This document shows, piece after piece, positions 11,954 through 32,946 of a DNA stretch of 64,000 nucleotides. The stretch spans positions 6,752,001 to 6,816,000 of the forward strand of contig OZ245838.1 of NCBI GenBank assembly GCA_965228735.1, in the 5' to 3' direction. How positions within the stretch are numbered: position 1 is the first letter of the stretch; the number at the start of each line of letters is the position of its first letter. The stretch comes from Planctomycetota bacterium. Its GTDB lineage: Bacteria > Planctomycetota > UBA1135 > UBA2386. The translations under genes were made by a program, and so were the position numbers. Under the pieces are notes generated by a model. The model saw only the letters and a program-made list of their open reading frames with translations, was not told the DNA's origin and ran no database searches.

Positions 11954-13603
11954 ATGCAGCAATCCGCGTCCTTCCAGGCCCCGCGTGGGACGACCCTCAA
12001 CTGCGCCAATTGGCAGATCGAGGCCGCCTACCGGATGATCCAGAACAACCTCGACAGCGAGGTCGCCGAGGATCCCGAACAGCTCATCGTCTACGGCGGG
12101 CTCGGCAAGGCGGCGCGCAATCACGAGGCGCTGAGCAAGATCCTCGCGACGCTCAAGCGCCTGCAGCCGGACGAGTCGATGCTCGTGCAGTCGGGCAAGT
12201 GCGTCGGCGTGCTGAAGACGCACCCGGACGCGCCGCGCGTGCTGATCGCCAACAGCAACCTCGTCGGCGACTGGGCCAACTGGGACGAGTTTCGGCGGCT
12301 CGACGCGCTCGGCCTGATGATGTACGGCCAGATGACCGCGGGCAGCTGGATCTACATCGGCAGCCAGGGCATCGTGCAGGGCACCTACGAGACGTTTGTC
12401 GCCGCGGGCAAACGTCACTTCGACGGCGACCTGCAGGGCACGCTCACGATCACGGCCGGGCTCGGCGGCATGGGCGGCGCGCAACCGCTCGCGATCACGA
12501 TGGCCGGCGGCGTGTGCCTCGCGGCCGACGTCGAGGGCTGGCGGATCGACAAGCGCCTCGAGACGAAGTACCTCGACGAGCGCATCGACGACCCGAAGCG
12601 GGCGCTCGAGGTCGCGCTGCAGAAGAAGGCGGAGGGCGTCGCGTGGTCGATCGGGGTCGCGTGCAACGCGACCGAGCTGCTCACCGTCGTGCGCGACAGC
12701 GGGCACGTTCCGGACCTGCTGACGGACCAGACGTCGGCGCACGACATGCTCATCGGCTACGTGCCCGATGGCATGACCGTCGCAGAGGCCAATGAACTGC
12801 GCGAGCGCGACCCGAAGGCCTACCTGAAGGAGTCGAGCCGGACCGTGGCGCGGCACGTGTCGCTGATGCTCGAACTGCAGGAGAAGGGCGCGATCACGTT
12901 CGACTACGGCAACAACATCCGCACCGAGGCGCGCGACGCGGGCGTGGCCGAGGCCTTCCGGATCAAGGGCTTCATCCCCGAGTACATCCGGCCGCTGTTC
13001 TGCTCGGGGCGCGGACCGTTCCGCTGGGTCGCGCTCAGCGGCAACCCGAAGGACATCGCGCGCACCGACGAGCTGGCGCTCGAGATGTTCCAGGACAACC
13101 CGGCGCTCGTGACGTGGATCGAGAAGGCCAAGGAGAAGATCGCGTTCCAGGGCCTGCCGTCGCGCATCCTTTGGCTCGGCTACGGTGAGCGCGCCCGGTT
13201 CGGCCTCGCGGTCAACGAGCTCGTGAAGCGGGGCGAGATCGAGGCGCCGGTCGTGTTCGGCCGCGATCACCTCGACTGCGGTTCGGTCGCGTCGCCCTAC
13301 CGCGAGACCGAGGCGATGAAGGACGGCAGCGACGCGGTCGCCGACTGGCCGCTGCTCAACGCGATGCTCGCCGTCGCGTCCGGCGCGACCTGGGTGTCGA
13401 TCCACCACGGCGGTGGCGTCGGCATGGGCAAGTCGATCCACGCGGGCCAGGTCACGGTCGCGGACGGCACCGAGGCCGCGGCCGCGCGCATCGGCCGGGT
13501 CTTCACCTGCGACCCCGGGATCGGGGTCATGCGGCACGCGGATGCCGGTTACGAGGACGCGCAGGCGTTCGCCGCGCAGGAGAACATCGACCTCGGCGGC
13601 TGA
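11954..13603 (+). CDS. hutU: Urocanate hydratase
   Basis: [80 protein letters not shown]. Confidence 0.97.
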
Positions 13604-13855: not shown

Positions 13856-14620
13856 ATGTTCCGTCGTCAGAAAGCCGAAGAGCGCGCCCCCGGCACCGAA
13901 GGTGATCTCGTCGTCGTCGTCGACGAGGCGGTCAACCCGTTCCTCGTGATGTTCCACGAGCCGGCGAGCTTCCGCGCCGAGCAGGTCCGCTCGCTGCGCA
14001 ATCGTCTCGTCGCGATGAACCCCGATGGCGAGCCGAAGACGCTCGTCGTGACATCCGCGGTGCGCAGCGAGGGCAAGTCGATCGGCGCGCTCAACCTGGC
14101 GATGGCGTTCTCCGAGCTCGAGTGGCAGAAGGTCGTCATCGTCGACGCCGACCTGCGGCGCCCGAGCTGTGAGAGCTACCTCAACCTCAACCGCGGGAAG
14201 GGCTTCTCCGACGTGCTGCTCGGCGACGCGACGCTCGATGAAGCGCTGCGACCGGCCGGCTTCCGGCACCTGCAGCTGCTCGGCGCCGGCACGCCCGTGA
14301 GCAACCCGGCCGAGGTGCTCGGAATCGGGCGCATCGACGGCCTGTTCCAGCGGCTGAAAGAACGCTTCCAATACATCGTGATCGACACGCCGCCCGTGCT
14401 GCCGTCGACCGACGCCGGCGTGCTGTCATCGCGCGCCGACGGCACGCTCGTCGTCGTGCAGCTCGAGCAGTCCCTCAAGGGCCAGACCAAGGACGCGATC
14501 CGGCTGCTGCAGGATCAGGGCGGCAACGTGCTCGGCACGTTCGTGAACGGCCTGCGCGGCCAGGACCCGGAGAGCGACAAGCGCCTGGCCTACGAGCCGC
14601 GCGAGATCGACGAGGACTGA
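13856..14620 (+). CDS. Stand-alone CpsD/CapB-like (BY-kinase / MinD-superfamily) P-loop protein
   Basis: AEQVRSLR, Walker A SAVRSEGKS, Walker A' VIVDADLRRP, Walker B YIVIDTPP. No C-terminal Tyr cluster. Confidence 0.85.
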   Translation: MFRRQKAEERAPGTEGDLVVVVDEAVNPFLVMFHEPASFRAEQVRSLRNRLVAMNPDGEPKTLVVTSAVRSEGKSIGALNLAMAFSELEWQKVVIVDADLRRPSCESYLNLNRGKGFSDVLLGDATLDEALRPAGFRHLQLLGAGTPVSNPAEVLGIGRIDGLFQRLKERFQYIVIDTPPVLPSTDAGVLSSRADGTLVVVQLEQSLKGQTKDAIRLLQDQGGNVLGTFVNGLRGQDPESDKRLAYEPREIDED

Positions 14621-14622
14621 TC

Positions 14623-15414
14623 GTGAAGCGCTTCAAGGAATCGCTGAAGGACGCCGTGCGCCAGATGGCGTATCGGACGTCCGTGGACAGCCTCAAGAAG
14701 CGCGGCGTCCAGCAGGTCAACGTGCTCGGCATGGACCGCATCGTCTCGCTCGTCGAGGCGGCGGTGCACAAGAGCCTCAAGAGCAGGCTCGTCGGCATGG
14801 AGCGCGAGGCGGTCGCGGATGCGACCAAGGCCGAGTTCGTGCGCCTGATGCGCAACAACGAGGATCTGCAGCGCGAGAAGAGCGAGATCGAGCAGCAGAA
14901 GGAGCGCGCGCAGGAAGAGGTCGACATCATGCGGCGCGAGATCGCGCAGCAGGAGCAGGCCCTCAAGACCCGGCTCGACGAGGGCGCGCTCGAGGTCGCG
15001 AGCCGCTACGAGGGCGAGAATGCCGTGATCGCGCAGAAGGTGGCGGACGTGATGCGTTCGCTCCAGAGCCAGGGCGGCCTCGCGGGGGCCGAGACCAAGG
15101 TCATCGAGCTCGTGATGGACATCGTCCAGGACGAGCGCAAGGAGGCCGAGGAGGCCCGGGCGGCGCTCCGCGACCGCGAGGTCGAGAACCTGCGGCGCCG
15201 GATCACCAAACTCAACGACTCGCTCGCGCAGACCGAACATCGGTTGCAGTCGGTGTCCGCGATGAAGAACATCGACGACGGCATCTCTTCGATCTACCGG
15301 GAGGTCCAGGGGCTCGACGCCTCGGACCAGCAGGCCGGCAAGAAGAAGGAGCTCATGTCCGAGATCTTCCGCGCCAACCTGGAGTTGCAGCAGAAGGTCA
15401 AGAGCCGGCAGTAG
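14623..15414 (+). CDS. Cytoplasmic coiled-coil protein
   Basis: GTG start 2 nt after the previous stop; E/K/Q/R-rich heptad stretches; no signal peptide or TM segment. Confidence 0.8.
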   Translation: MKRFKESLKDAVRQMAYRTSVDSLKKRGVQQVNVLGMDRIVSLVEAAVHKSLKSRLVGMEREAVADATKAEFVRLMRNNEDLQREKSEIEQQKERAQEEVDIMRREIAQQEQALKTRLDEGALEVASRYEGENAVIAQKVADVMRSLQSQGGLAGAETKVIELVMDIVQDERKEAEEARAALRDREVENLRRRITKLNDSLAQTEHRLQSVSAMKNIDDGISSIYREVQGLDASDQQAGKKKELMSEIFRANLELQQKVKSRQ

Positions 15415-15479
15415 GCCGCGGGCAGACGCACACGCAGTACAGGCAGCAGCAAGACAGCAGGAACGCAGTAGGGAACAAG

Positions 15480-16559
15480 ATGACGGAATCGCCCAAGAGC
15501 CCGGAGACCGATTCTCCGGAGAAGGACCATGGCGTCCTCTACATCGGGATGGACCTCGGCACGTCGCGCACTTCGGTGTCGGCGAGCAACGGCGTGCGCG
15601 AGACGGTGCACTCCGTGGTCGGCTACCCGAAGGACGTGGTCAGCAAGAAGCTGCTGAAGCGCGACGTGCTGTTCGGCGCCGAGGCGATGGAGAAGCGCCT
15701 GTCGCTCAAGATGTACAAGCCGCTCGAGAAGGGCGTTCTCAAGTACACGGGCGACGCGGAGAAGGACGCCGAGGCCAAGGCCAACCTCAAGGCCGCCGAG
15801 GATCTGATCGGGGAAGCGATCCGGCTCGCGAAGCCGCGCCAGGACGAGCTCGTCTACTGCGTGATCGGCTGCCCGGCCGAGGCCTCGATGAAGAACCGCG
15901 AGGCGATCATCGAGGCCGCGCGGTCGCACGTCGATTCGGTCATGCTCTGCAGCGAGCCGTTCGCCGTCGCCTACGGCCTCGACTGGCTCGAGGACGTGCT
16001 GGTCATCGACATCGGCGCGGGCACGACCGACCTCTGCCGCATGCACGGCACGATGCCGGAGGACGCCGACCAGGTCACGTTCGACGTTGCCGGCGACGCG
16101 GTCGACCAGGCGCTCGACGCCGAGATCGAGAAGAACTGCCCCGGCGCCCAGCGCACCGTGCAGATGGTCAAGGAGATCAAGGAGCGTTGGGGCTTCGTCG
16201 GGGACGCATCGGAGCGCGCGATGGTCTCCCTGCCCGTCAACGGCAAGCCGACCGAGTTCGACCTCACGGACTCGATCCAGACCGCCTGCAAGATCCTCGT
16301 CGACCCGATCGTCGGCGGCATCCACGAGCTGGTCAGCTCGTTCGACCCCGAGTTCCAGAACAAGCTGAAGAACCGCGTCCTCCTCGCGGGCGGCGGCTCA
16401 CTCCTCAAGGGCCTCGACTCGGCGATCGAACGCGCCCTGCAGGAACGCCTCGGCGGCGGCAAGGTCATCCGCATCGAAGAACCGATCTACGGCGGCGCCA
16501 ACGGCGCGCTGAAGATCGCGCATGACATGCCGGCTGACTACTGGGAACAACTCAAGTAG
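15480..16559 (+). CDS. mamK: MamK-like actin (MreB/MamK family)
   Basis: IGMDLGTSRT (phosphate 1), SVVGYPKDV, SEPFAVAYGLD, DIGAGTTDLC (phosphate 2), LLAGGGS (adenosine) and C-terminal MPADYWEQL, which matches the LPPQYWRQL end of MamK as I recall it rather than MreB. Confidence 0.85.
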   Translation: MTESPKSPETDSPEKDHGVLYIGMDLGTSRTSVSASNGVRETVHSVVGYPKDVVSKKLLKRDVLFGAEAMEKRLSLKMYKPLEKGVLKYTGDAEKDAEAKANLKAAEDLIGEAIRLAKPRQDELVYCVIGCPAEASMKNREAIIEAARSHVDSVMLCSEPFAVAYGLDWLEDVLVIDIGAGTTDLCRMHGTMPEDADQVTFDVAGDAVDQALDAEIEKNCPGAQRTVQMVKEIKERWGFVGDASERAMVSLPVNGKPTEFDLTDSIQTACKILVDPIVGGIHELVSSFDPEFQNKLKNRVLLAGGGSLLKGLDSAIERALQERLGGGKVIRIEEPIYGGANGALKIAHDMPADYWEQLK

Positions 16560-16735: not shown

Positions 16736-16779
16736 CACGATGTCACGTGTGACATCGTGCCCGTACGGTACCTGGTTCA
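16736..16779. repeat. Palindrome plus partial REP-like copy
   Basis: cacgatgtcac-gt-gtgacatcgtg (11-bp arms, 16736-16759) is followed by ccgtacggtacctggttca (16761-16779), identical to part of the left arm at 36680. Confidence 0.7.
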
Positions 16780-16825: not shown

Positions 16826-17545
16826 TCAGACTCCGAAGTGGGTTTGGAGGATGTCGCGGAGTTGGAAGAAGTCGGTGACTTCGTGGTTGGCCTTGGTTTG
16901 GCCTTCTTCCGTGCTGTAGCGGCCGCCGCGGCGGACTCGGACCGTGTGCCAGCCTTCGTTGTTGCAGGGGTCGATGTCGTGGGTGGGGTTGTCGCCGACG
17001 TAGAGGCAGCGGGCGGGCTCGAGCTTCATGTGTTCGAGCACGCGGCGGTAGAGCTTGGGGTTGGGCTTGCTGAAGCCGACCTGGTCCGTGAAGAAGATCG
17101 CGGAGGGGGTGAGGAACTCGAGGACCCCGAGGCGGACGACCTTCTCGGCCTGCTTGATCGTGATGCCGGCGGAGACGACACCGCGGACGAGCGGCTTGTC
17201 GGCGAGCCAGCGCAGGACCTCGTAGACGTCGTCCCAGACCTTGAGCTTGCTCCACTTGGTGTCGTGGTAGGCGCAGACGCCCGCGGCGACGATGACCGCG
17301 CGATTGTTGCCGTCCCAGGTCTCGTGGCCGAGGCGGTCGAGCACCTTGTCGAAGTGGCTGCCGTAGTTGCTCGAGAACTCGGCGATGACCTCCTGCAGCT
17401 CGCGCAGCGCCGCGTCGCGCTCGCAGCGCAGGCCCGCGCGTAGCATCGCGTCGATCGCGGCGCGACGGGCCTGATCGGCGAAGACCGACGTCGAGAACAG
17501 CGTGTCGTCGACGTCGAAGAAGATCGCGTCCAGGGCGGTGCTCAT
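16826..17545 (-). CDS. HAD-superfamily IA hydrolase, TIGR02253-like
   Basis: IFFDVDDTL motif I, SSNYGSHFD, IKQAEKVVRLG, KPNP motif III, YVGDNPTHDI motif IV. Confidence 0.88.
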   Translation of the reverse strand: MSTALDAIFFDVDDTLFSTSVFADQARRAAIDAMLRAGLRCERDAALRELQEVIAEFSSNYGSHFDKVLDRLGHETWDGNNRAVIVAAGVCAYHDTKWSKLKVWDDVYEVLRWLADKPLVRGVVSAGITIKQAEKVVRLGVLEFLTPSAIFFTDQVGFSKPNPKLYRRVLEHMKLEPARCLYVGDNPTHDIDPCNNEGWHTVRVRRGGRYSTEEGQTKANHEVTDFFQLRDILQTHFGV

Positions 17546-17621
17546 GGGCGTGCTCAGCTCCTTCGCGTGTCCGGTCCGGCGCTGGCGCGCGGGAAACACG
17601 CCGCGGGGGTCCTGCCTACGC

Positions 17622-17655
17622 AAAAGGCCGCGCCGATCGTAACCGGCGCGGCCTT
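17622..17655 (-). terminator. Intrinsic terminator after secretin 1
   Basis: Minus strand reads aaggccgcgccg-gttacgat-cggcgcggcc-tttt, about 45 nt after the stop at 17699. Confidence 0.75.
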
Positions 17656-17698: not shown

Positions 17699-20287
17699 TT
17701 ACCGCCCGACGCTGTTCACGACGTCCGTGATCTGCGCACGCACCATGACCATCAGGCTCTTGTTCTCGTCCACCGAGCCCTCCTGCTTGAACAGGAACGA
17801 GATCAGCGGCAGGCGCGCGAGCAGCGGGACCTCGGCGCGACGCTCCTTGGTCAGCACCTGGCGCAGACCGCCGAGCAGCACCGTGCCGCCGTCCGGCACC
17901 TTGGCAGTGGTCGAGAAGTTCGTGACCACGAGGTTCGGCAGCTGCAGCGTGACCGGCAGCGTCGAACCCGCGAGCGACGTGGTGAACGTCGGGATCGGGC
18001 GGGTCAGTTCGGCGACCGTCGGGTTGAGGTTGAGGATGATGTACTTCCGGTCCTGCTGGATGACCGGCTGCACGTCGAGCACGATGCCGTCCTGGATCAC
18101 GTCGACCTTCGGGTCGGCGATGAACGCCGCCTGCGCGACCTCGACGTCGAAGTCGCGGACGTAGGCCGTCTGGTTGATCACGGCGACATGGCCGCGCTCG
18201 CGGTTGAGCACCGAGAGGATCTGGCTGTTGACCATCTCGACGTCCTGCTGCTTCTCGACGGCGCGCAGGATCACGTTGAGCTGCAGGTCGTCGAGCAGCG
18301 TCCAGCCGGCCGTCAGACCGCCGGTCGGCGACAGCGCGCGGCTCAGGTCGTTGGCGAAGTAGTTCTCCGTGCGGCCGCGGATGTCACCGTCGCCGCCGTC
18401 GTTGAAGAACGCACCCGCGAGCGGGTTGGCCGCCGGATCGCCCGTGCCGCCGTTGTCGAGGCCGCGCGACGCGTTCGACTGCAGGCCGTTGGTCACGTCG
18501 TCGAGCGGCACGACCGTGCCCTTGTTGCCCGAGCCGCCGAGGCCGCGGATGTCGATGCCGACCTCGCTCAGGAAGTTACGCGAGATCGTCAGGAACTTGC
18601 TGTCGATCGTGACGATCGGCGTCGCGAAGCGGCGCATGTCGTTGAGCACCGTCTCGACCTGGGCCTGCATCTCCGGCGTCGCGGTGACCGCGAGGAAGCC
18701 CGAGTCCTCGGCGCGGATCTCGACGCCGTCACCGTCCCAGTAGATCGGGTCGGTCGCCTCGCGAACGTTGGTCACGAGGTCGGCGATCTCGATGTAGGAG
18801 ACCGGGTCCTCGCCCTCGCCACCCGTGCGCGGCACGTCGTCGAAGCCGTCCTCACCCGGGATGTCGCGGATCTTCGGCGGCAGGAACTGCGTGCGCTGGA
18901 AGACCAGGTCGCTGACCGGGTAGATCTCGGTCGTCAGCGTGCCGGCGGCCTGCGACTTGTCGCCGATCAGGATGACGCCGTTCTTGACCGTCCACGCCAG
19001 GTTCTCCGTGCGGTCGGTCATGTGGTTGAGGAAGTCGCGCAGCGTGACCGAGCCGACGAGCTCGATCGCGAGCACCATCGACTCGGTGTCGATGATGTCG
19101 CGCGCTTCCGGCGTCACGATGATCTGCAGCTGCGTGCGCAGGCTCAGATTGCGGATCACGTCGAGGTAGGCGCCCGTGTCCTCCGTGTAGGTCAGCTTGC
19201 CGACCTGCATCGTGTTGACCTGGTCCCAGACCGCCTGGTCCATCGGGTCCATGACGGCCGTCGTCGAACGGCGCGCCTTGCGGCCGTTGGCCCGCGCCCA
19301 GACCGCGAGGTCCATCTCGAGCACCGCCGTCTGCGGCACCTTGAGCTCCTCGTCCGCCTCCAGCATGCGGCGGATCGCCCGCGCGCGCTGCAGGTAGTAC
19401 TGCTGGTTGCTGTCCTCACGCGCGGCCTTGACCGCGGCGTTGTGCATCTCGGACGCGATCACGCTCGACGGATCGACGTCCTTCGCGCGCGTCGCGAGTT
19501 CTTGCGCGTAGGCGAAGCGCTGGTTCTCGAACGCCTTCTGCGCTTCGAGGATCAGCGCATCGTGCTGATCGCGGCGGCGCTTCTCGGCGGCCTCGTTCTC
19601 GGCGCGCAGACGCTCGGCGAGGCGGGCGCTCTCGGCCTCCTGGCTCGCCTTGACCTGCTCGTCGTAGAGCCCCTGCATCTCGTCCGTCTTGGCCGTGACG
19701 CGCTGCGGCAGATCCTGCCAGTCGACGAGGTCCTTGAGCTCGATGACCTGCGCCGCGATGCGCAGCTCCTCGAGCGCGCCGGCGTAGTCCATCGTGGCCG
19801 CGAGCTCGTCGGCCTTCTGCAGCTGCATCTCGACGTTGGTGCGCGCGCGGTCTTCGCCGATCTGGCGCAGACGCGTCTGCTCCTCGGCGAAGCTCACGAC
19901 CGTGCCGACCGGCTCACCGAGCTCGGCCTGCACGCTGATCAGCAGCTCGGCGATCTCGGTGTTGCCGGGCGCCATGCTCACCGCCTTCTGCAGCTCGCGC
20001 TTGGCCGCTTCGAGCTGGCCGCGCGTGCGCAGGGATTGCGCGTTGCTGACGTATCGCTCGACGAGCACCGCGCGGCGCTGCGCGTCGACGCCCTGCGGGT
20101 CCTGCGCCGCGCCACCGGCATTGCCGCTGTTGGCCATGCCGGGGTTGCCGCCCGTGTCGCCGCCAGGGTTGTTGGCCGCGGGGGTCGGGTCCGCCGGCTG
20201 CGGGTCGGCCGGCGACATGGAGCAGGAAGCGCCGAGCAGTGCGGCGATCAAAGAGACAGCGAGAAGGCGCGATTGTTCGAGGGCCAT
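17699..20287 (-). CDS. Lipoprotein secretin (GspD/PilQ-like C-terminus) with helical/TPR-like N-terminus, paralogue 1
   Basis: Lipobox LLGASC; N3-like LAVTATPEMQAQVETVLNDMR; IVTIDSKFL; GIVLDVQPVI; TTAKVPDGGTVLLGGL; VPLLARLPLISFLF. Confidence 0.88.
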   Translation of the reverse strand: MALEQSRLLAVSLIAALLGASCSMSPADPQPADPTPAANNPGGDTGGNPGMANSGNAGGAAQDPQGVDAQRRAVLVERYVSNAQSLRTRGQLEAAKRELQKAVSMAPGNTEIAELLISVQAELGEPVGTVVSFAEEQTRLRQIGEDRARTNVEMQLQKADELAATMDYAGALEELRIAAQVIELKDLVDWQDLPQRVTAKTDEMQGLYDEQVKASQEAESARLAERLRAENEAAEKRRRDQHDALILEAQKAFENQRFAYAQELATRAKDVDPSSVIASEMHNAAVKAAREDSNQQYYLQRARAIRRMLEADEELKVPQTAVLEMDLAVWARANGRKARRSTTAVMDPMDQAVWDQVNTMQVGKLTYTEDTGAYLDVIRNLSLRTQLQIIVTPEARDIIDTESMVLAIELVGSVTLRDFLNHMTDRTENLAWTVKNGVILIGDKSQAAGTLTTEIYPVSDLVFQRTQFLPPKIRDIPGEDGFDDVPRTGGEGEDPVSYIEIADLVTNVREATDPIYWDGDGVEIRAEDSGFLAVTATPEMQAQVETVLNDMRRFATPIVTIDSKFLTISRNFLSEVGIDIRGLGGSGNKGTVVPLDDVTNGLQSNASRGLDNGGTGDPAANPLAGAFFNDGGDGDIRGRTENYFANDLSRALSPTGGLTAGWTLLDDLQLNVILRAVEKQQDVEMVNSQILSVLNRERGHVAVINQTAYVRDFDVEVAQAAFIADPKVDVIQDGIVLDVQPVIQQDRKYIILNLNPTVAELTRPIPTFTTSLAGSTLPVTLQLPNLVVTNFSTTAKVPDGGTVLLGGLRQVLTKERRAEVPLLARLPLISFLFKQEGSVDENKSLMVMVRAQITDVVNSVGR

Positions 20288-20678
20288 CGGGTCACTCGGT
20301 GCGTGCAGAAGGGCTGAAGGAGCTGCGTCGTTGCAGCTCCCGTGCCCACGTGTCGAGAGGGGCTGAGTGCCGGCACGTGGACGGGACGAAACGACCGCTA
20401 GCTGGGGGCAGGCGGCCGGGAGGGACCGGAAACCTATCTACGGCCAGGGACCGGTGCCAGCGCTTTTTCAAGGTTGGAAGTCGTTGGCAAGGCCGGCGCT
20501 GGGGCCGATTTGCGGGGCGGCGCGGTTGCCCCGGGGCAGCGTTGCGCCGGAGCCCATGCGGCCCGGGTCGCGACGGGCGGCCCGGGTTCGCCGAGGTGTC
20601 GCCGGAGGGGGCTCTGGCGGGCCATGCGGCGCTCTCGGCCAGGGCCGCGCGAGCGCGGGCCCGGTCCTTTCGGCCCGC

Positions 20679-22244
20679 TCAGCGGCCCGTCAGCTCGTCG
20701 AGGATCGCGCGCGAGCGGGGGTGGGCCTCGCAGACTGTTCGGTCGCGTCGGTCGCGCGCGTGTGGGTCGGCGCCCGCGGCCAGCAGCACGCGGACGACGG
20801 GCCGCGGATCGACGCTGCGCCCGCACTGGAACGCGTGGAACAACGGCGACGCTCCCGTCTTCTCGTCGGGTCGGTCGACGTCGGCGCCGGCGTCGAGCAG
20901 CGCGGCGACCGTCGCCGCGAACCCGGCCTTCGCCGCGAAGTGCAGCGCGGCGCGGCGCCAGTACGGGTGCACGCGGTCGGGGTCGGCGCCGCAGTCCAGC
21001 AGCGCGCGCACGTACTCGGCGTCGTCCTTCTGCGCGTGGTTGCCGGTGCAGCTCTGCCACTGCCAGCTGCTCCACGGGTCGGATTCGTAGTTCACGTCCG
21101 CGCCGTGCTCCAGCAGCAGCGGCGCGAGATCGCCGTCGAGCACCCAGCGGCCGCAGCCGACGCGGGTCGCGTCGGCGCCGCGATCGAGGAGTTGCCGCAG
21201 CAGCTCGGGGTCGGGGGCCTCGGCCGCGTGCCGCACGAGTTCGTGGCTGCGTTCGCCGACCGTGGCGCCGCGGTCGAGCAGAAGCGTTGCGGTCATCGGC
21301 TGGTCGTGCAGGACGGCATGGTAGAGCGGCGTCAGTCCGAGGATGTCGTCAGCCGGGTCGGGCGTCTCGAGCAGTTCGGGGTGGGCGTCGAGCCAGCGCG
21401 ACACGCCGATCCGATCGCCGAGGGTCGCGGCCGTGAAGATGTCGTCGCGCGCGCCGAGCTCGAACAGCAGCTCGGCCGCCGCGGTCTTGCGCTGCCGCAG
21501 CGCGCCGCACAGCGGGGTCGCGAGCGGGCCGCTCCAGTCGATCGAGGTCGCGGCCGCCGGATCGGCACCCGCTTCGACGAGAACGGCGATCACCTCGACC
21601 CGACCGCGCGTCGCCGCGAGGTAGAGCAGGCTCGGGCTGCCCCACGCAGGTTCCAGCAGTTGCGGTCGTTCGGCGAGTGCAGTGCGGATCGCGGCGACGT
21701 CGCCCTTCTTCGCGGCCTTGACCGCCGCGTCGTGGACCGGGTCCTTGCCGCAGCGATGGCGGTCGGGGTCGGGCGGGCCCGTCGGGTCCTCGTCGTTGAC
21801 GAACGCGGTCGCGAGCGGCCGCAGGGTCGCGTGGATCTCGTCGCGCAGATCATTCGATACGCCGGCCATTCGCAGCGCGCGTTCGAAGTGGCCGAGCCAG
21901 CGCTGCGCGTCGCGCGGCGCGATCCGCGCGTGGCGGTGGCGCAGCCGCAGCCCGGCGCGCGCGCGGTGGCGCGAGTAGAGCGGTTCGCCGCCGAACCACT
22001 CCTCGAAGAACATCACCTGGTTCTGCCGTTCGAGCGCCTGGTCGCGCCGGAACATCGGGCGCAGCACCGGGTCGTCGTGGATGCCGTCGTAGAGGCCCTG
22101 CACGATCCGAGCCACGGTCTCGCGGCCGCCGAGCCGGTCGAACAGCGCCGGGTCGGGGCGGAGCCGGTCGACCTGCAGGTGCAGGCCGCCGCGGTGGGCG
22201 AGGGTGGGGTGGGGGGCGTCACCCGCGGGGTGGGGTGGCATCAT
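20679..22244 (-). CDS. Group II truncated haemoglobin fused to ankyrin repeats
   Basis: LFDRLGG...LYDGIHDDPVLRPMF...WFGGEPLYS...LRLRH (proximal His)...AQRWL, followed by ankyrin repeats TPLCGA, TPLYHAV, AALHFAAKAG...LLDAGADVD, SPLFHA. GAGGT RBS before ATG 22244. Confidence 0.85.
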   Translation of the reverse strand: MMPPHPAGDAPHPTLAHRGGLHLQVDRLRPDPALFDRLGGRETVARIVQGLYDGIHDDPVLRPMFRRDQALERQNQVMFFEEWFGGEPLYSRHRARAGLRLRHRHARIAPRDAQRWLGHFERALRMAGVSNDLRDEIHATLRPLATAFVNDEDPTGPPDPDRHRCGKDPVHDAAVKAAKKGDVAAIRTALAERPQLLEPAWGSPSLLYLAATRGRVEVIAVLVEAGADPAAATSIDWSGPLATPLCGALRQRKTAAAELLFELGARDDIFTAATLGDRIGVSRWLDAHPELLETPDPADDILGLTPLYHAVLHDQPMTATLLLDRGATVGERSHELVRHAAEAPDPELLRQLLDRGADATRVGCGRWVLDGDLAPLLLEHGADVNYESDPWSSWQWQSCTGNHAQKDDAEYVRALLDCGADPDRVHPYWRRAALHFAAKAGFAATVAALLDAGADVDRPDEKTGASPLFHAFQCGRSVDPRPVVRVLLAAGADPHARDRRDRTVCEAHPRSRAILDELTGR

Positions 22245-22251
22245 GGCCACC

Positions 22252-23240
22252 TCACGAGGGGCCGATCACCGCGGTCGCGGCATCGGACAGGGCGGCGCCC
22301 AGCGCGTTGCCGGCCTGTGGATCGAGCACGAGCGCCTGCAGGTGCAGGGTCCAGCCGACGAGGGTGGGCGTCGGCGGAATCGTGACGGCGATGTCGGCGT
22401 GTCCCGCCGTGCCCTGAACGAACAGCATCACCTCCGGCGCGACCCGAAGCGTGCAACCGGGCAGGCCGAATGCACTGAGCTCGAGCGGGAGCGGCCCGAG
22501 GCCCGAGGACGTCGCGTCGGTGCCGAGCGCGACGATTGCCGCCGCGAGGGGCAGGTTGTCGATGCGAACGACGGCCGTCGCGCCGAGGCGCGGCGGCGCG
22601 CTGGCGGTGAGCGTCGCGCGCGGCAGGCTGCCGGCGCACCCGGCGCCCAACGTCTCGAACGACCCCGGACCGAGGATCGCCGCGCCCTCAGGATGTGGAA
22701 CCCATTGGCCGCGACGGAGATCGCCGTGTACTGCACGCCGGCGGGCAACGTCGGCACGGGGGTCAGCCACGTCAGGTTGCCCCACAGCGTGATGCTCCCG
22801 TCACTGCGGAGGCCGGCGGAGAAGCCGGACCCGGCGGCGACTCCGGTGTAGGTCAGGCCGGGCGGCAGGGCCGGGACGTCGCACTGGTGCGAGTGGTTGT
22901 ACCCCCACGCGAGCGCGACGCCGTCGCTGCGGATCGCGAGCGTGTGCCGGTAGCCCGCGGCCACGGTCGTGTAGGTCTGACCGGGCGGCAGCGGCGGCAC
23001 GAGGCATTGGCCCTCGCGGTTTCGGCCCCAGGCCACGAGCGTGCCATCGGGTCGCAGGGCGGCGGTGTGGAACCCGCCGGCCGCGATCGCCGTGAAGCTC
23101 TCGTCGAGCCACGCGTCGTTCGTGACGGTCTCGCCCCACGTGGCGAGGGTCTGGGCGGCGAGCCCGGATGCGAGGCCAGTTGCGAGGCCGGCTGCGAGGC
23201 ACGGCGCAAGAACTGCGGCTGCGGGGGCCCGCATCAGCAT
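22252..23240 (-). pseudogene. Secreted RCC1-repeat protein with the shared C-terminal module, frameshifted near 22690
   Basis: Signal peptide and about four RCC1 units (IAAGGFHTAALRPDGTLVAWGRN) in one frame. The C-terminal module (GSFETLGAGC...LHLQALVLDP...LSDA) lies in another frame ending at 22252. Confidence 0.75.
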
Positions 23241-23393
23241 CCGCCAACCCGGGCGGCGCAGCGGTGAGTGACATCCCATGTCGGGACATCGTAGCCGATC
23301 GTGGTCACTCCGTACACGACTCGGCCCGCCGGGTCCTCGGGGACGCGGCGGGCCGGGTTGGTGCGGCCCCATCGGTCGGGGCGACTCGGGTCG

Positions 23394-23948
23394 CTACTTC
23401 TTGGCGCCGAGGCCGCCGCCGAAGTTGATCTCTTCGAACTCGGCCTCGTTGGCGGCGTCCGCCGTGCGGGCGACGCTCTCGTAGAACACGCCGGGGTGCG
23501 GCTCGATGACGACCGGCATGAGCTTGCGCGTGCCGGGGTTCTTCGGGTCCGGGACGCGGCTCGCCGGGTCACTCGAGATGCGCTTCAGCTCCTTGGCGAC
23601 GTCCTCGATGTCGTGGAGCGGCTTCGGGCCGACCATCCACTTCACCTTGTAGTTCTCCATGACGAAGCGATACGGGCGGTCGTTGTTGGGGTTGAGGTCG
23701 TTCGGCCCCATGCCGTTCGGATACTTGGGAGAGCCCTGCGATTCGACGTAGATGCCCACGGAGAGCTGCTCCATCGGCTCGACCTGCGTCGACTGGCTGC
23801 CCTTGTCCTTCGGCAGGTAGGCGGGGAGCTTGGCTTCGAGCACTTTGAACTCGATGCAGAGGAAGAAAATGATCATCAGGAAGACGCAGTCGATCATCGG
23901 CGTCATGTCCGCCTTGGCTTCTTCCTGTGCGTCGTCGATGGCACTCAT
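23394..23948 (-). CDS. exbD: ExbD/TolR family protein 2
   Basis: DMTPMIDCVFLMIIFFL TM helix with the conserved Asp; starts immediately after the stop of the upstream exbD. Confidence 0.88.
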   Translation of the reverse strand: MSAIDDAQEEAKADMTPMIDCVFLMIIFFLCIEFKVLEAKLPAYLPKDKGSQSTQVEPMEQLSVGIYVESQGSPKYPNGMGPNDLNPNNDRPYRFVMENYKVKWMVGPKPLHDIEDVAKELKRISSDPASRVPDPKNPGTRKLMPVVIEPHPGVFYESVARTADAANEAEFEEINFGGGLGAKK

Positions 23949-24491
23949 CTACTTGCCCTCCAGCAGACTCTTGTTCTTCTCTTTGGTTTCCTTGTCCTCT
24001 TCGGACAGGGCGAGCTCGACCTTCCAGAACGCGATGTGCGGCTGGCTGCACTGCTTCATGATCTCGCCGATGTAGTGCCACTCGGTCCACTTGTCGGCGC
24101 GGATCAGGATCGGGTCGTCGATCAGCTTGACCATCTTGCCGCCGATGTCCTCGTCGACGATCTTGAGCTTGCCGGTCAGTTCGCCCTCGCGGCGGATGTT
24201 CTCGAGCAGGATGCGGATCTTGGTGTAGTCCTTGCCGTCGACGAGCGCGTCGTAGATCACTTCGCCCTCGAAGATCACCGAGCCGTTCTGCAGCACGTTG
24301 ATGATCGGCCGGTTCTCGGGCGGCTGGTCATCGGGCTCCTGGAACTCCGCGCGCGGCAGGATCAGGTCCTCGAGGTTCTTCTGGCTCAGGTCGATGACCA
24401 ACACGAAGAAGATCATCAACAGGAACACGCAATCGATCATGGGCGTCATGTCCATGTCGAGCTGCTCCTGAGCGACTTTTTGCATGTCCAT
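23949..24491 (-). CDS. exbD: ExbD/TolR family protein 1
   Basis: DMTPMIDCVFLLMIFFVL; ILIRADK; AGGAGG RBS. Confidence 0.92.
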   Translation of the reverse strand: MDMQKVAQEQLDMDMTPMIDCVFLLMIFFVLVIDLSQKNLEDLILPRAEFQEPDDQPPENRPIINVLQNGSVIFEGEVIYDALVDGKDYTKIRILLENIRREGELTGKLKIVDEDIGGKMVKLIDDPILIRADKWTEWHYIGEIMKQCSQPHIAFWKVELALSEEDKETKEKNKSLLEGK

Positions 24492-24603
24492 TGGTTCGCC
24501 TCCTTTGGCGGTAGGACTTCAGTAGGAGTTGGGAACGCGGACCGACGCCCGATGGTTCAACCCGCTGGCGCGCGGGTCGACTGCCGGGCGTCGATGCTGG
24601 CTC

Positions 24604-25332
24604 CTACTTGCGGAACCGCTCGAACAGGTCTTCCGTGACCGCGTTGATCTCGGTCGACGTGCGGATGACGCGGTTGCGCAGCGTGAAGAACGCGACGCCG
24701 ACCGGGATGGCGACCGTCAGACCGAACATGGTCGTGATGAGCGCCATCTTGATGCCGCCCGCGAGCTGTGCCGGCGACACCGAGCCGCCCGCGTCGGCGA
24801 TCTTGCCGAACGTGACGAACATGCCCGACACCGTGCCGAACAGACCCATCATCGGCGCGATGGCCGAGATCAGCGACAGCCAGCCGATCTTCTGGAACAG
24901 CTTGACCGACTCCTCGGTCTGCATTTCACGAACCGACGTCTGGATCGTCTCGTGCGGGTGGCCGAGCTTGGCCAGGCCGGCGCCGACGACGTTCGTCAGG
25001 TAGTTCTTCTCCTGCTCGCAGAGCTCGACGGCGTCCTGGAAGCTCTCGCCGTCGAACAGCGCTTCGAGCTCGTCGATCAGGTCCGGCGGCGCGAGCTTGT
25101 CGCGCTTGATCGTCATGAAGTTCTCGATGATCAGCGCGACGGCGACGATCGAGAGGACGATGATGAGGTAGCCGATCGGGCCGGCGTTGTCCCACTTGAA
25201 GACCTCGATGATCGGGCTCGAGGACTTGCTGCCCTCACCGCCTTCGGCTTCCTGGGCAAGCAGCGAGGTTGCCAGGACGAGCGGCGTGCCGACGGCAAGG
25301 AGACGAACGAAGGGCACTTGGTTCAGGATCAT
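24604..25332 (-). CDS. exbB: MotA/TolQ/ExbB proton-channel protein
   Basis: IAPMMGLFGTVSGM and LAGGIKMALITTMFGLTVAIP; N-terminal cleavable-looking signal peptide. Confidence 0.92.
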   Translation of the reverse strand: MILNQVPFVRLLAVGTPLVLATSLLAQEAEGGEGSKSSSPIIEVFKWDNAGPIGYLIIVLSIVAVALIIENFMTIKRDKLAPPDLIDELEALFDGESFQDAVELCEQEKNYLTNVVGAGLAKLGHPHETIQTSVREMQTEESVKLFQKIGWLSLISAIAPMMGLFGTVSGMFVTFGKIADAGGSVSPAQLAGGIKMALITTMFGLTVAIPVGVAFFTLRNRVIRTSTEINAVTEDLFERFRK

Positions 25333-25604
25333 GGTGACGCGATGGCTGCGTTCCGTTCACGCAGCAGTTCAGTTAGGGGAGAGGGGGATACGAACAGCGA
25401 GCCACCGGCGATCGGTCGGCCTGGGTTGGACCGGCGAGGGGCTGGACGCCGAGAGGCAAGAAGGGGGACACCCGAAAGGGGGGCCAGAGTTTGCGGCAGA
25501 AGGCCGGACTGGGGAAGTCCCTAGGGCAGAAACCTGGGGACGGAAAACGGGGTGGTGGCGCCGCGGGCGGCGCCACCCGATGGGGTGCGGACAGCCGCTC
25601 GGCG

Positions 25605-26777
25605 CTACTGCTCCAGGGCCGCTTTGGCCCTGCTGGCCCATTCGGTCCTGGGGTAGTGCTGGACGACCCGGCGGAAGTAGGCTTGCGCGCGCGCCTTGAA
25701 CTCGTCGCCCTCGCGCGCTTGCCCGAGCTCGAGCTGGCAGCGGCCGAGGAAGTAGTTCGCGCGGGCGCTGGTGTCGCCACCGAGCGAGTCCATGACCGCG
25801 GCGCGGGCGAGCGCGAGCTGGGCCTTGCGCAGCATGGCCGGCTCCTTGTTGCCGCCCATCGCCTTGAGGAAGACCGCCTGGCCCTCACCGGCCCACGCGG
25901 CCGCGGCGAGACCCATGTCCTTGCTCTGCGTCAGGCCGTGGAAGAACGACTCGGCCCGCTGGAAGTTCTCGTCGGTGAGGAAGGTCTCGCCCTCGCCGAT
26001 CTTGCTGAGCACCTGCAGTTGCTTCAGTTCTTCCTCGTCGCCGGGCGAGTTCTGCATCGCGCTCTCGGCGGCCGAGTGGGCCGTCTGGAACTGCGTGCGG
26101 GCTTCGCCGGTCTTGTTGTTGGACGCGAGCGTCAGGCCGAGCTCGTACTTGGCACGGGCACTCCACACCGACCCGAACGCTTCGGCGATGGCGCGATCAT
26201 CGAGGGTCTTGAGCACCGTCGCGGCGTCGTCGCCCTTCTGCGCGAGCCGCAGCGCGCGGCCCGCGAGCAGCAGCGCTTCGGGAACGCGCCAATGGTCGTT
26301 GTTGGCCGTGACCCACGCCTGCGCGCGCTCGGCGGCCGTGGCTGCCGCGCTCGCGTCCGTGATCGCGGCGACCGCCGCCTTGATCTGGAAGAACTCGCAG
26401 TCGGTCACGACGAGCGGGCGCTTCGCCGCGCTGGCCGCTTCGCCGAACATCTGCGTCGCGGTGTCGAAGTCGCCGCGCTCGAGCGCGGCGCGGCCGATGA
26501 TGAACGGCTCGGGCAGGTTGCCCCACTCGACGCTCGCGACCGTGCGGCCGGGGATCTCGACCTCTTCGCCACCCTTCTTGGTGGCCTTGACCGTCTCGCG
26601 CTTGAACTCGGTGATCTCGATGCCGCGCATCGTCGCGCCGTTCTTGCGCACGAGGACGTCGCTCTGCGCGGGCGCCGGCGTCACGAACACAGTGGCCGCG
26701 ATGGTGGCGGTCAGGAGGAGCTTCCTGGCAAGGACAGGCTTCCCGGCGAGGGGCTTCATGGTGTTGTCGGTTTGCAT
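25605..26777 (-). CDS. Exported TPR-like protein
   Basis: Start at MQTDNT or MKPL (26759); signal peptide ending TPAPAQ; helical repeats; C-terminal FRRVVQHYPRTEWASRA resembling BamD/CpoB-type TPR ends. Confidence 0.8.
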   Translation of the reverse strand: MQTDNTMKPLAGKPVLARKLLLTATIAATVFVTPAPAQSDVLVRKNGATMRGIEITEFKRETVKATKKGGEEVEIPGRTVASVEWGNLPEPFIIGRAALERGDFDTATQMFGEAASAAKRPLVVTDCEFFQIKAAVAAITDASAAATAAERAQAWVTANNDHWRVPEALLLAGRALRLAQKGDDAATVLKTLDDRAIAEAFGSVWSARAKYELGLTLASNNKTGEARTQFQTAHSAAESAMQNSPGDEEELKQLQVLSKIGEGETFLTDENFQRAESFFHGLTQSKDMGLAAAAWAGEGQAVFLKAMGGNKEPAMLRKAQLALARAAVMDSLGGDTSARANYFLGRCQLELGQAREGDEFKARAQAYFRRVVQHYPRTEWASRAKAALEQ

Positions 26778-26794
26778 CGTTCGGGTGCTCCGGA

Positions 26795-29650
26795 TCAGCG
26801 GTTGTAGAGGAACATGTTGAAGAGCTCCTGGCCCTTGCTGCCGAGGCTCTTGAGCGTCGCGAAGTCGTCGGTCGCGCGCGCCTTGCGGTAGAACTTCTGC
26901 GCGGTCTCCTCGTACTTGCTGTCCTTCTTCGCCGCCTGCTTGGCGAACCAGTAGCACTCCCAGTGGAAACGGTACCACTCGTAGCTGTACGGCTGGACCG
27001 CGGGGCGGAGCGCCCACTTGCGGTACTCGGTGTAGTACTTGAGGTAGGCCTCTTCGGCGCGGTCCAGTCCCGGCTCGCGGACACCCTGCCCGGTCGCGTT
27101 GAACTCGAACCAGCCGCCGAGGCAGCGCGAGATCTGGCGCTTGATCTCCCACTGCTCGGGGTTGGCCTCCTCGGCCTTCTCGAGCATCTCGAGCGCGACC
27201 GTGAACTTGCGCTGCTGCAGCAACGCCTCGCCGATCATCGGCCGGACCGTGAGGTCGACGACCTTCTGCGCGGCCGGGTCGGTGTCCTCGCCGTAGAGGT
27301 CGAGCGTCTTGCGCGCGATCTCGCCGACGCGCTGCCACTCACCGAGGGCCTCGAACGCGTTCATCGTGTTGACGAGCACGGCGATCTGCGGCTTGGGTGA
27401 GCTGTTGATGTAGTCGAGGCCGAGCGCGCTGAGCTTCTGCCGCACCTGCTCGAGCTGCTGGCGCGCGGCTTTCTGCGCGGTCTCGTCGTCCTTGCTGATC
27501 GCGGCCGTGAGCTCGTCGTCGAGCGACTTCTCCTGGTTGCGGTACTCGAGGAAGATCTCGGTCGCGAGGCGCGCGGCGCGCGTCTGGTCCTTCTGCTTGA
27601 GCGTCGCGTACATCTCCTCGGCGCGGTCGAGCTCGCCGATGTCGCAGAACAGGCGGCCGAGGTAGGCCGTCGCGATCGGGACGTTGGGGTTGCTCGGGTT
27701 GTTGGTCGAGAACGCCTTGAGCTTGGCGATCGCGTCCTGGTACTTGGTCGCGTCCTTCTCGATGTTGAGCTCCTCGTTGCCGCGCGCCTGGAAGTAGGCG
27801 AGCTGGGCCTCGAGCAGTTCGCCGCTCGCGAGCGCCGCTTCGCGGACCTGCTGCAGGCCAGCGTCGCGCGCGTCGATCTCGTTCTGCTTCGTGTACTCCC
27901 GGTACTCCTCGAGCGTCTTGATCGCCTGGTCGACGTTGCCGCCGAACGCCTCGGCCATCGCAACGCGCACCCGCGCGGTCTCGTACTGCGTGAAGTCCGG
28001 CGGCACCTGGCGGTACTGCTCGGCCGCGCGCTTGTAGTTCTTCTCCGTGAAGGCCGCGTTGCCCTCCTTGTAGAAGATCTTGCCCGCGCCGGCGATCGAG
28101 TAGGTCTTGATCAGGTTGGCGTACTGGTCGAAGACCGGATCGAGCAGCGGGTCGTTGTTGGTCTGGCGCTTGAGGCGGGTGATCGCGCGGTCGAGGCGGT
28201 CGGCAGCGTCGCCGGCCTGGTCCTCGTCGGTCGCGCCGAACTTCTCGAGTCCGGTGCCGAGCGCGATGATGGCCTCGAGGTTGCGCTCGCCGATCGCGAA
28301 CGCGGTGCCGAGCATGTCCCAGGCCTCGAGTCCGACCTCCTGCTCCTCCTGCGCGCTCATCACGGACAGCGCGCGACGCAGGCCCTGGATCGCGGCCTCG
28401 TAGTTGTCGTTCTGGAACTCGCCCTTGGCGATCTCGAACAGCATCTTGCCCGAGACCAGGCTCTGCTGGGCCTCGAGCATGTCGCGCATGGCCGACTTGG
28501 CCTTGATGCCGACGTAGTCGTTGGGGTGCTTGTTGTTGATGCGCTGCACCATCGCGATCGCCTCGGCGATCTTGCCCTGCTCGCCGGACTCGGCCTTGTA
28601 GCGCGCCTCCTCGAGCAGCATGAGGTGGCCCCAGCGCGGCGACACGACCTCGAACACCTCGAGGCCCTCCTGGCCGAACTTGGTCGCGAACTCGCGGAAC
28701 GACGCGAACAGCGCCGGGGTGTCCGGGCTGCCCTGCTCCGACAGCACCTCGGCGGTCTTGTAGAACACCTCCTGCGCCATCTCGTAGAGCAGCGCCTGGG
28801 TCTCGCCCGGCATGCCGGTGTCCGGCGCGTCCTTGAGGCTGGTCTGGATCTGATCGATCGTCGCCTGGTAGATGTCGATCGCGCCGTCGACGTCGCCGTT
28901 GACCTGGAAGCACTGCGCGATCTCGAACAGGCCGCGCAGACCGAGCGCGGTCTCCTCACCGTAGTCGAGGACCATCTCCTCGAGCTCGCCCACGGAGCGC
29001 TCGACGAGCACGTCGCGGTCCTGCTTGACCGCGCGCGCCTGCTCGCGCATGAGCACGCCCTTGCGCATCCAGAACAGGCCATACTCGATGTTCGTCCGCT
29101 CGTCCTTGCGGCGCTGCCCTTCGAGCTCCTCCATGACCTTGCTGCAGGCTTCGATGCCGGCGCGGAACGTGTCCGACGCCTCGCTCTCGAGCTGGCCCAC
29201 GGCCTCGGGGTTCTCCTCGCGCGCGATCTCGAGCTCCTGCAGCAGGAACTGACCGAACTCCTGCGAGGCGTCCGCGAGCGTGCCGCGCGCCTGCAGCAGG
29301 ACCTTGTCGTCGTTGCTGCGGCCGATCAGCTCCTTGGACTTCTCGATCGCTTCCTTGAACAGCGTGCGCTGGACCTCGCGGTCGGCGCGCAGCTTGGCGC
29401 CCTGGTAGCTGATCTGGACGCTGAGTTGGGCGATGCGGTCCTGTTCACCCGCGGCGCGATGCTCCGTCGCGAGGCGGTCGGCCTCGGACTTCGCGAGTTC
29501 GATGAAGCTCATCTTCTCCGCGAGCGCGCGGACGAAGTCGAGCTCGCGATCGAGCGAGTCCTGGGCCAGGAGGAGGGAGGACGAAACGCCGGTCAACGCC
29601 GGGCCGAGAAACGCCGTGAGAATGGCGAGTCGAATGCCGGTCACAAGCAA
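26795..29650 (-). CDS. Large exported TPR/alpha-solenoid protein (951 aa)
   Basis: N-terminal signal peptide; TPR-like units such as GLFEIAQCFQVNGDVDGAIDIYQ, LFEIAKGEFQNDNYEAAIQGLR, FYKEGNAAFTEKNYKRAAEQY. Confidence 0.85.
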   Translation of the reverse strand: MLVTGIRLAILTAFLGPALTGVSSSLLLAQDSLDRELDFVRALAEKMSFIELAKSEADRLATEHRAAGEQDRIAQLSVQISYQGAKLRADREVQRTLFKEAIEKSKELIGRSNDDKVLLQARGTLADASQEFGQFLLQELEIAREENPEAVGQLESEASDTFRAGIEACSKVMEELEGQRRKDERTNIEYGLFWMRKGVLMREQARAVKQDRDVLVERSVGELEEMVLDYGEETALGLRGLFEIAQCFQVNGDVDGAIDIYQATIDQIQTSLKDAPDTGMPGETQALLYEMAQEVFYKTAEVLSEQGSPDTPALFASFREFATKFGQEGLEVFEVVSPRWGHLMLLEEARYKAESGEQGKIAEAIAMVQRINNKHPNDYVGIKAKSAMRDMLEAQQSLVSGKMLFEIAKGEFQNDNYEAAIQGLRRALSVMSAQEEQEVGLEAWDMLGTAFAIGERNLEAIIALGTGLEKFGATDEDQAGDAADRLDRAITRLKRQTNNDPLLDPVFDQYANLIKTYSIAGAGKIFYKEGNAAFTEKNYKRAAEQYRQVPPDFTQYETARVRVAMAEAFGGNVDQAIKTLEEYREYTKQNEIDARDAGLQQVREAALASGELLEAQLAYFQARGNEELNIEKDATKYQDAIAKLKAFSTNNPSNPNVPIATAYLGRLFCDIGELDRAEEMYATLKQKDQTRAARLATEIFLEYRNQEKSLDDELTAAISKDDETAQKAARQQLEQVRQKLSALGLDYINSSPKPQIAVLVNTMNAFEALGEWQRVGEIARKTLDLYGEDTDPAAQKVVDLTVRPMIGEALLQQRKFTVALEMLEKAEEANPEQWEIKRQISRCLGGWFEFNATGQGVREPGLDRAEEAYLKYYTEYRKWALRPAVQPYSYEWYRFHWECYWFAKQAAKKDSKYEETAQKFYRKARATDDFATLKSLGSKGQELFNMFLYNR

Positions 29651-29864
29651 CTCCGGATCGGGGACTGAAAGTCGTCGCGCGCAGTCGTTACCCGGAATGA
29701 GGTAACGAGTTACGGCTATACGAGGGCGGGTCTCGGAGGGGCCGCCAAGAGGCCCGCCGGGGAGGGAGAACGAAGGACTATAGCGACTCGTTCACTCGTT
29801 CCAACGATTAACGACCCCACCGGACGACCCGTCCTTGCCCGATCCGGGCTTCGGCCGCCAATGC

Positions 29865-29898
29865 AAAACGGCCGGCCCCGCGTCGCGGGGCCGGCCGT
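29865..29898 (-). terminator. Intrinsic terminator after secretin 2
   Basis: Inverted repeat acggccggccccgcg-t-cgcggggccggccgt; followed by a T-run on the minus strand, about 50 nt after the stop at 29951. Confidence 0.75.
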
Positions 29899-29950
29899 CG
29901 GAATTGGCCGTCTCGGGATCGGCCGTCTCGGTTGCCGATGGGGGCGGCGC

Positions 29951-32599: not shown

Positions 32600-32946
32600 G
32601 CTGAATGCCTGCAATGAGGACGTACAGGGAGAGGGGGTGCGGCTGGGCGGTGCCGCGCGAGACCGACTCGACGCGGGTGCGACGACGACGGCGCGAGAGG
32701 GAAAAGAACGAGTCGTCAGCGACACATCGGGACGTCGTCCTGCATGCCACAGGACCGGCGTGCTCGAGAGGCAGAGCTGGCGACACGGGATCCGGACGAT
32801 CCCGTAGATGACTCGCCGGGAGGGGAGAGTGGGCGGGACGGTAGCCAGCCCGGAAGGGGTGGTCAAGGTTGCTTTCGCCCGCTGGCGCCGGATCTTGCGG
32901 CGGGCTCGCGGCCCGGGTGGGGCCCGCCTGGCGACCCGCGGTGGCG

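Follow-up and report, generated by a model that had tools for sequence, protein, structure and literature searches.

In magnetotactic bacteria, an adaptor gene is located directly upstream of mamK, according to the available part of the source (PMC10653835). Saltatorellin of Saltatorellus ferox Poly30 was named in a 2019 preprint, the available text of which reports filaments in E. coli and M. gryphiswaldense (10.1101/817700), and it is mentioned once in the accessible text of a 2024 paper (PMC11032199). The actin type is therefore already known. No driver other than saltatorellin has been proposed for the amoeba-like shape change of these bacteria, and its partners are undescribed in searchable papers. 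Likewise, we found no paper on a coiled-coil partner or a kinase beside this actin in the searchable literature, outside which lie subscription journals and bioRxiv supplements. Here, we analyzed a locus in which a MamK-family actin is preceded by a conserved coiled-coil partner and by a kinase whose relatives reside in polysaccharide export loci.

Results

Gene arrangement and assignment of the actin

The window, that is, the whole stretch of 64,000 nucleotides analyzed here, comes from a planctomycete genome of one contig (G000; 7.19 Mb, 69% G+C, 93% complete). The first gene (13856..14620, +) encodes a stand-alone BY-kinase catalytic domain of the CapB/CpsD type with 254 aa, the second (14623..15414, +) a coiled-coil protein of 263 aa with a GTG start, and the third (15480..16559, +) a MamK-family actin of 359 aa, probably of the saltatorellin type, with intact nucleotide-binding motifs. 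The ORF coordinates gave gaps of 2 nt between kinase and coiled-coil gene and 65 nt between coiled-coil gene and actin, all three ORFs being on the + strand, as stated in the original prediction. Neither a sigma-70 promoter nor a terminator above chance was found at the triad. The locus sits on the main contig and had no plasmid match, and its named homologues were mostly labelled Planctomycetota.

The actin passed the NCBIfam MamK model (NF040964; 409.9 bits, cut-off 400) and stayed below the cut-offs of the BeeR (NF053558; 206 bits, cut-off 530) and MreB (TIGR00904; 54 bits, cut-off 366) models, and its best PDB match was MamK (E 3e-72). The expected MamK-type signatures were all present in the sequence (SVVGYPKDV, SEPFAVAYGLD and the C-terminal PADYWEQLK). 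In a 42-row alignment, D25-G27, S158-E159-P160, D177-G179-G181 and G304-G306 were invariant, and the actin ATPase motifs, including xEPx of connect-1 and DxGxG of phosphate-2 as defined in the available part of PMC10653835, were found. By analogy with its relative in the 2019 preprint, the protein likely forms ATP-driven filaments. Identity with Mad28 was rejected, since D177 is kept where Mad28 has Ser for Asp in phosphate-2.

We then placed the actin in an IQ-TREE tree of 33 rows, the deep nodes of which are weak; other tree runs were similar. The actin grouped with planctomycete sequences far from MreB, in line with the distinction drawn beforehand, and BeeR formed a separate clade. It also fell outside a 7-row clade (support 98/97) holding P0211, which is near PDB MamK (Magnetospirillum-like), and P0151, which is named MamK; the labels of the remaining rows of that clade are presumptive. 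The genome encodes an mreB over the cut-off at G000:306027, followed by mreC, mreD, PBP2 and rodA as read by eye, and, as had been noted, neither mreC nor mreD lies beside the window actin. Judged from its sequence, the third gene is a MamK-family actin and not MreB. Of 251 genomes sampled from the phylum, ~85 had a match to this actin at E<=1e-80 (hand count); the actin of locus L125 was 78% identical to it.

The reverse primer of the saltatorellin preprint differed by two mismatches from the last 20 nt of the actin gene, with 0 matches in 100 shuffles, and matched exactly in another locus (L116; 68% identical). The sole match of the forward primer was an unrelated gene. Given the C-terminal primer match, the window actin is probably saltatorellin.

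Since the actin score lies above the MamK cut-off, the triad might be taken for a part or relic of a magnetosome system. However, models of MamA, MamB, MamM and MamI gave scores under the cut-off or no match in this 93% complete genome, and magnetochrome gave no match, with a positive control lacking for MamI and for magnetochrome. The CDF and LemA genes that were found are generic and scattered across the genome, and by these models the signature set mamABIKMQ was not present. Moreover, the actin lies outside the clade with Magnetospirillum-like MamK and is present in about a third of the sampled genomes. The magnetosome reading is thus largely refuted and we regard it as extremely improbable. 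The absence of magnetosome genes claimed at the outset was borne out, with no cluster in the single-contig genome in a search for MamA, MamB, MamM, MamI and magnetochrome; the organelle cargo proposed for the filament module was not found.

The coiled-coil protein and its conservation beside the actin

The coiled-coil protein matched no Pfam or NCBIfam family; it is predicted to be all-helical (pLDDT 82) and has 297 homologues of near length. It splits into a head (residues ~5-80; 14635..14862, +), a stalk and a tail (residues ~185-260; 15175..15402, +). To follow the gene, we used 60 actin loci chosen to span families from the phylum-wide list of actin matches, 55 of which belong to the close clade. 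Of the 60 loci, 45 had a homologue upstream of the actin and on its strand (45 of the 55 close-clade loci), the other 10 close-clade loci having no same-strand partner. A homologue was likewise upstream in 43 of 47 separately scanned loci, partly overlapping the 60, and two of the four misses lay at contig ends; the partner was tail-only in 14 of these 47 MamK-type loci. Elsewhere, 20 of 20 loci holding other genes of the partner family had no actin within ~6 kb. These counts agree with the expectation that the coiled-coil neighbour is conserved, and the gene is a real partner of the actin that is described in no paper we found. By its linkage, the protein is likely a dedicated adaptor of the actin, and we consider it very probable that the two form a working pair.

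Several side observations concern this family and its relatives. In a sister family (L190:5547-6596, L113-L118 and similar), the adaptor head is missing or replaced. One unlinked copy has, by eye, a GGDEF-like segment at its start, and an FHA-like domain is present in P0301. Other MamK-like actins (P0123, P0128-P0130, P0132-P0135, P0137, P0139, P0141, P0142 and P0148) have N-terminal extensions of 350-900 aa starting in a conserved coiled-coil segment; these extensions proved unrelated. No adaptor-actin fusion was seen among 150 representatives. P0164 (768 aa) looks like FtsZ fused to MamK, each scoring over its cut-off (TIGR00065 for FtsZ), and may be an assembly artefact.

The layout of head, stalk and actin-specific tail resembles that of ParR, and the pair could accordingly segregate DNA like ParM/ParR, with the head binding DNA and the tail binding actin. 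We consider this very unlikely. No family of direct repeats was found upstream of the operon, the locus is on the main contig, and searches with the head against Pfam, PDB sequences and folds, the last aligning only the coiled coil, returned no DNA-binding family. A Foldseek search of the adaptor gave no match at E<=0.001 and returned generic coiled coils only, a VIA fold search reached a best Z of 6.0 by aligning residues 58-105 only, which is coiled coil, and Atlas matches were all under 0.9. The head had nothing significant against Pfam and PDB profiles, and a search for longer head homologues gave one match among 7994 candidates scored.

Other neighbours of the triad

Downstream of the actin, two genes point towards the triad from the opposite strand, one for a HAD protein (16826-17623, −) and one for a secretin (17699-20287, −). 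The original prediction had the triad converging on a secretin/ExbBD cluster one gene away; this holds for the HAD and secretin genes, but not for the ExbD-ExbD-ExbB/TolQ genes, which are further off (23394-25332, −) and separated from the secretin gene by unrelated genes. HAD and secretin genes followed the actin in 4 of the 60 loci, all of the window's own family. Among close triad loci they did so in 25 of 28, and among tail-only loci in 0 of 14. In L040, L082 and L084, all-against-all clustering pointed to genes of the secretin family close to the actin, which BLAST at 1e-5 did not confirm. The supposed coupling to the secretin/ExbBD cluster therefore amounts to own-family synteny, and a link to an Agl/Glt-like motor found no support.

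As further observations, the region 17699-32866 (−) contains two secretin-like genes (862 and 971 aa), two TPR-like genes, one ExbB/TolQ gene and two ExbD genes. The first secretin abuts exbD in the relatives L031, L032 and L034, whereas an ankyrin-like gene of 523 aa (20679-22250) and others intervene in the window. Between the converging actin and HAD genes is an inverted repeat (16736-16759) whose 11-bp arms match perfectly and are 2 nt apart. Upstream of the triad is the urocanate hydratase gene hutU (11954-13603), which was not kept as a neighbour in the 60 loci.

A second actin system sharing the adaptor head

A profile of the head (residues 5-80) matched exactly two ORFs in the six-frame translated genome, each directly upstream of an actin. 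The second ORF (G000:737.7-738.6 kb) ends ~90 nt ahead of the gene at G000:738737 for an actin of the volactin family (PF25216; 273 bits, cut-off 35), and the two genes make up a second actin system at G000:C1:737680-739780 (L140:7680-9780). The phosphate-2 site of this actin reads SFGGG, with Ser for Asp as described for Mad28 in the available part of PMC10653835, the comparison being with that description.

Volactin-type genes were found in 95 of the 251 sampled genomes. As for their partners, 30 volactin loci were cut at 1.5 kb; the head profile matched 21 of them, whereas the tail profile, found in partners of MamK-type actins, matched none. Among 62 further matches, taken from the best 150 of 200, 41 preceded a volactin gene by no more than 3.5 kb. 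At their end, the volactin partners have a conserved tail of their own. Because the tail is confined to partners of MamK-type actins and the head is common to the volactin partners, we infer that the tail may be the actin-binding part that picks the actin, while the head would bind a shared anchor. The families f15 and f25 keep the head, with a volactin gene in 0 of 12 and 0 of 5, respectively; therefore, the two adaptors are not obligate partners.

Identity of the kinase and its linkage to the actin

In the kinase, the Walker A GK (73-74), A' DxDxR (97-101) and B DxxP (177-180), following the BY-kinase definitions in the available part of PMC4007543, were intact. It passed TIGR01007 (114.8, cut-off 108.05), and its best PDB match was CapAB (E 5e-31). 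The best-scoring family was the XrtA-associated TIGR03018, albeit below the cut-off (142.6 against 230.65); export-resident planctomycete relatives also remained under it (158 and 172). The scores against MinD (TIGR01969; 34.7, cut-off 201.75) and ParA (18.5, cut-off 180) were far too low. Of the predicted ATPase, the BY-kinase part was thus retained and the MinD/ParA part was not. The C-terminal tyrosine cluster is absent, with one Tyr in the last 30 residues. The same segment held 0-2 Tyr in 16 of 18 actin-linked kinases compared to 3-7 in 6 of 7 export-resident ones, which argues against a classical export autokinase.

The kinase was linked to the actin in 23 genomes of 9 families, co-oriented in 6 and divergent in 17, and ~62 of the 85 actin-bearing genomes had no listed linked kinase. 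The claim that both neighbours are conserved beside the actin therefore stood for the adaptor, but not for the kinase. All 21 kinase matches at E<1e-90 were within 2.5 kb of an actin, as were 2 of the next 18; since the profile was built from actin-linked copies, the top ranks are circular. The window kinase was the only BY-kinase found in the source genome, and in 9 of the 23 linked genomes the linked kinase was the only match. In family f2, the orthologous kinase lies away from both actin and export locus, indicating that adjacency is dispensable. Separately, the second kinase copy of family f63 (L192, L193, L202, L203 and L205) has a basic helical tail and lies mostly between acyl-CoA dehydrogenase-like and aroA-like genes, as read by eye.

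The scarcity of linkage could mean that only actin and adaptor form the module, the kinase being an ordinary polysaccharide kinase that acts from afar and was placed here by inherited gene order or a shared promoter. The unrelated positions of the kinase gene in f2 and f63 (13 of the 20 next-closest copies) fit this explanation. Nevertheless, adjacency outlasted an inversion by which the kinase came to lie 2 nt ahead of the adaptor, and other neighbours such as HAD and secretin were not kept beyond the family. We consider this explanation unlikely.

Relation of the kinase to polysaccharide export

Twenty next-closest kinases were fetched, of which 7 reside in wza/co-polymerase/O-ligase export loci; near the other 13, such genes were not seen. 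The source genome itself has an exosortase-type polysaccharide locus (G000:C1:996067-1011947; L141, L212) that contains wza-like, 541-aa co-polymerase, TIGR03097 ligase (over cut-off), glycosyltransferase-like, exosortase-like, 1351-aa and response-regulator-like genes and no kinase. Nineteen of 20 such loci of this lineage had no kinase in the fetched stretch, two of these being incomplete. A TIGR03007-like match was obtained in 31 of 31 genomes tested, in no case over the cut-off. No co-polymerase adjoins the window kinase, and two Wzz-type genes without an intact kinase domain were located elsewhere (G000:996961 and 4625556). The latter (G000:C1:4625556-4627772) encodes a 739-aa Wzc-like protein whose C-terminal domain has no Walker A GK by eye and which is likely a pseudokinase fusion.

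What is new is that relatives of the kinase are in exosortase-type polysaccharide loci and that the matching locus of its own genome is kinase-less. Since it is also the only BY-kinase found there, the kinase likely left the export locus and serves it from afar; that it serves the co-polymerase at this distance seems to us somewhat probable. Pneumococcal CpsD reportedly links the synthesis of capsule to the cell cycle (PMC4574921). Export could be tied to the filament physically or through regulation, but this is rather doubtful.

Alternatively, the kinase may have left the polysaccharide system for good and regulate the filament, either by phosphorylating adaptor or actin or as a MinD-like positioning ATPase. 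That it adjoins the actin in either orientation across 23 genomes of 9 families and has lost the tyrosine cluster would agree with such a role; so would f63, where one copy stayed by the actin and the duplicate moved away, and genome G094, which carries an export-resident kinase in addition to the actin-linked one. However, the MinD scores do not suggest a positioning ATPase, and the co-polymerases would be left kinase-less in 9 of the 23 genomes. With regard to a substrate, adaptor Tyr225 was present in 10 of 16 kinase-linked and 12 of 26 unlinked loci, a conservation short of a fixed substrate, and Tyr17 and Tyr129 occurred hardly, if at all, outside the own family. The idea of a fixed phospho-Tyr site in the adaptor was therefore unsupported, and regulation of the filament by the kinase appears somewhat unlikely.

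Discussion

We propose, tentatively and with a confidence a little short of probable, that the triad comprises a MamK-family actin, its dedicated adaptor and a displaced export kinase tying export to the filament. The actin, whose family is established by its model score, would polymerise as its relative does in the 2019 preprint. The adaptor tail, given its linkage and the domain split, would bind this actin, and the head, shared with the volactin-type adaptor, would bind a common anchor via the coiled-coil stalk. The kinase, considering the origin of its gene and the kinase-less locus, would dock on the membrane co-polymerase encoded at 0.997 Mb; it would be co-expressed with the filament genes and might cause matrix or capsule to be exported where the filament reshapes the cell.

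More speculatively, and unlikely as a whole, deep-branching Planctomycetota may possess a modular two-actin skeleton, in which one adaptor family with swappable tails plugs MamK-type and volactin-type filaments into a common anchor and the MamK-type filament, through a polysaccharide kinase that it has captured, steers where matrix is exported. If true, such a skeleton could explain how these cells shift shape and put out pseudopod-like extensions. The conserved adaptor with its defined tail, the sister adaptor for the second actin and the kinase of probable export origin offer three experimental entry points. The triad also bears on the origin of MamK and its adaptors before magnetosomes.

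Compared with known systems, the kinase has the Walker A, A' and B motifs of stand-alone CapB/CpsD BY-kinases and of the XrtA-associated TIGR03018 kinases that go with the TIGR03007 co-polymerase, and its relatives occupy the same locus type. It differs in lacking the tyrosine cluster and in its sub-cut-off TIGR03018 score, and, unlike export-resident kinases, it is ~1.4 Mb from the co-polymerase gene, assuming a circular contig, and adjoins an actin. VolA of Haloferax volcanii (PF25216; PMC10869688, as far as its available text goes) belongs to the family of the second actin of the source genome, the partner of which shares the head of the window adaptor; that second system is bacterial and differs from the triad in actin family and partner tail. 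MamK with its adaptors MamJ, LimJ and Mg-1g50 (PDB 5jyg/5ljv; available part of PMC10653835) resembles the triad in actin family, motifs and an adaptor gene directly upstream, whereas magnetosome genes are absent here and the actin is on a separate branch. The window adaptor is a predicted coiled coil. BeeR of Verrucomicrobiota is also a MamK-related actin in non-magnetotactic PVC bacteria, but it has an N-terminal extension of 30-50 residues, against ~18 in the window actin (available part of PMC11929497), and belongs to a separate clade whose model the window actin does not reach (206 bits, cut-off 530). Finally, the available text of the saltatorellin preprint does not contain the words "operon", "synteny" or "kinase", and partners are undescribed in it; saltatorellin, too, is MamK-like and, in addition to MreB, the second actin of a planctomycete from a deep branch, and its primer-encoded C-terminal YWEQLK is the same as that of the window actin (10.1101/817700).
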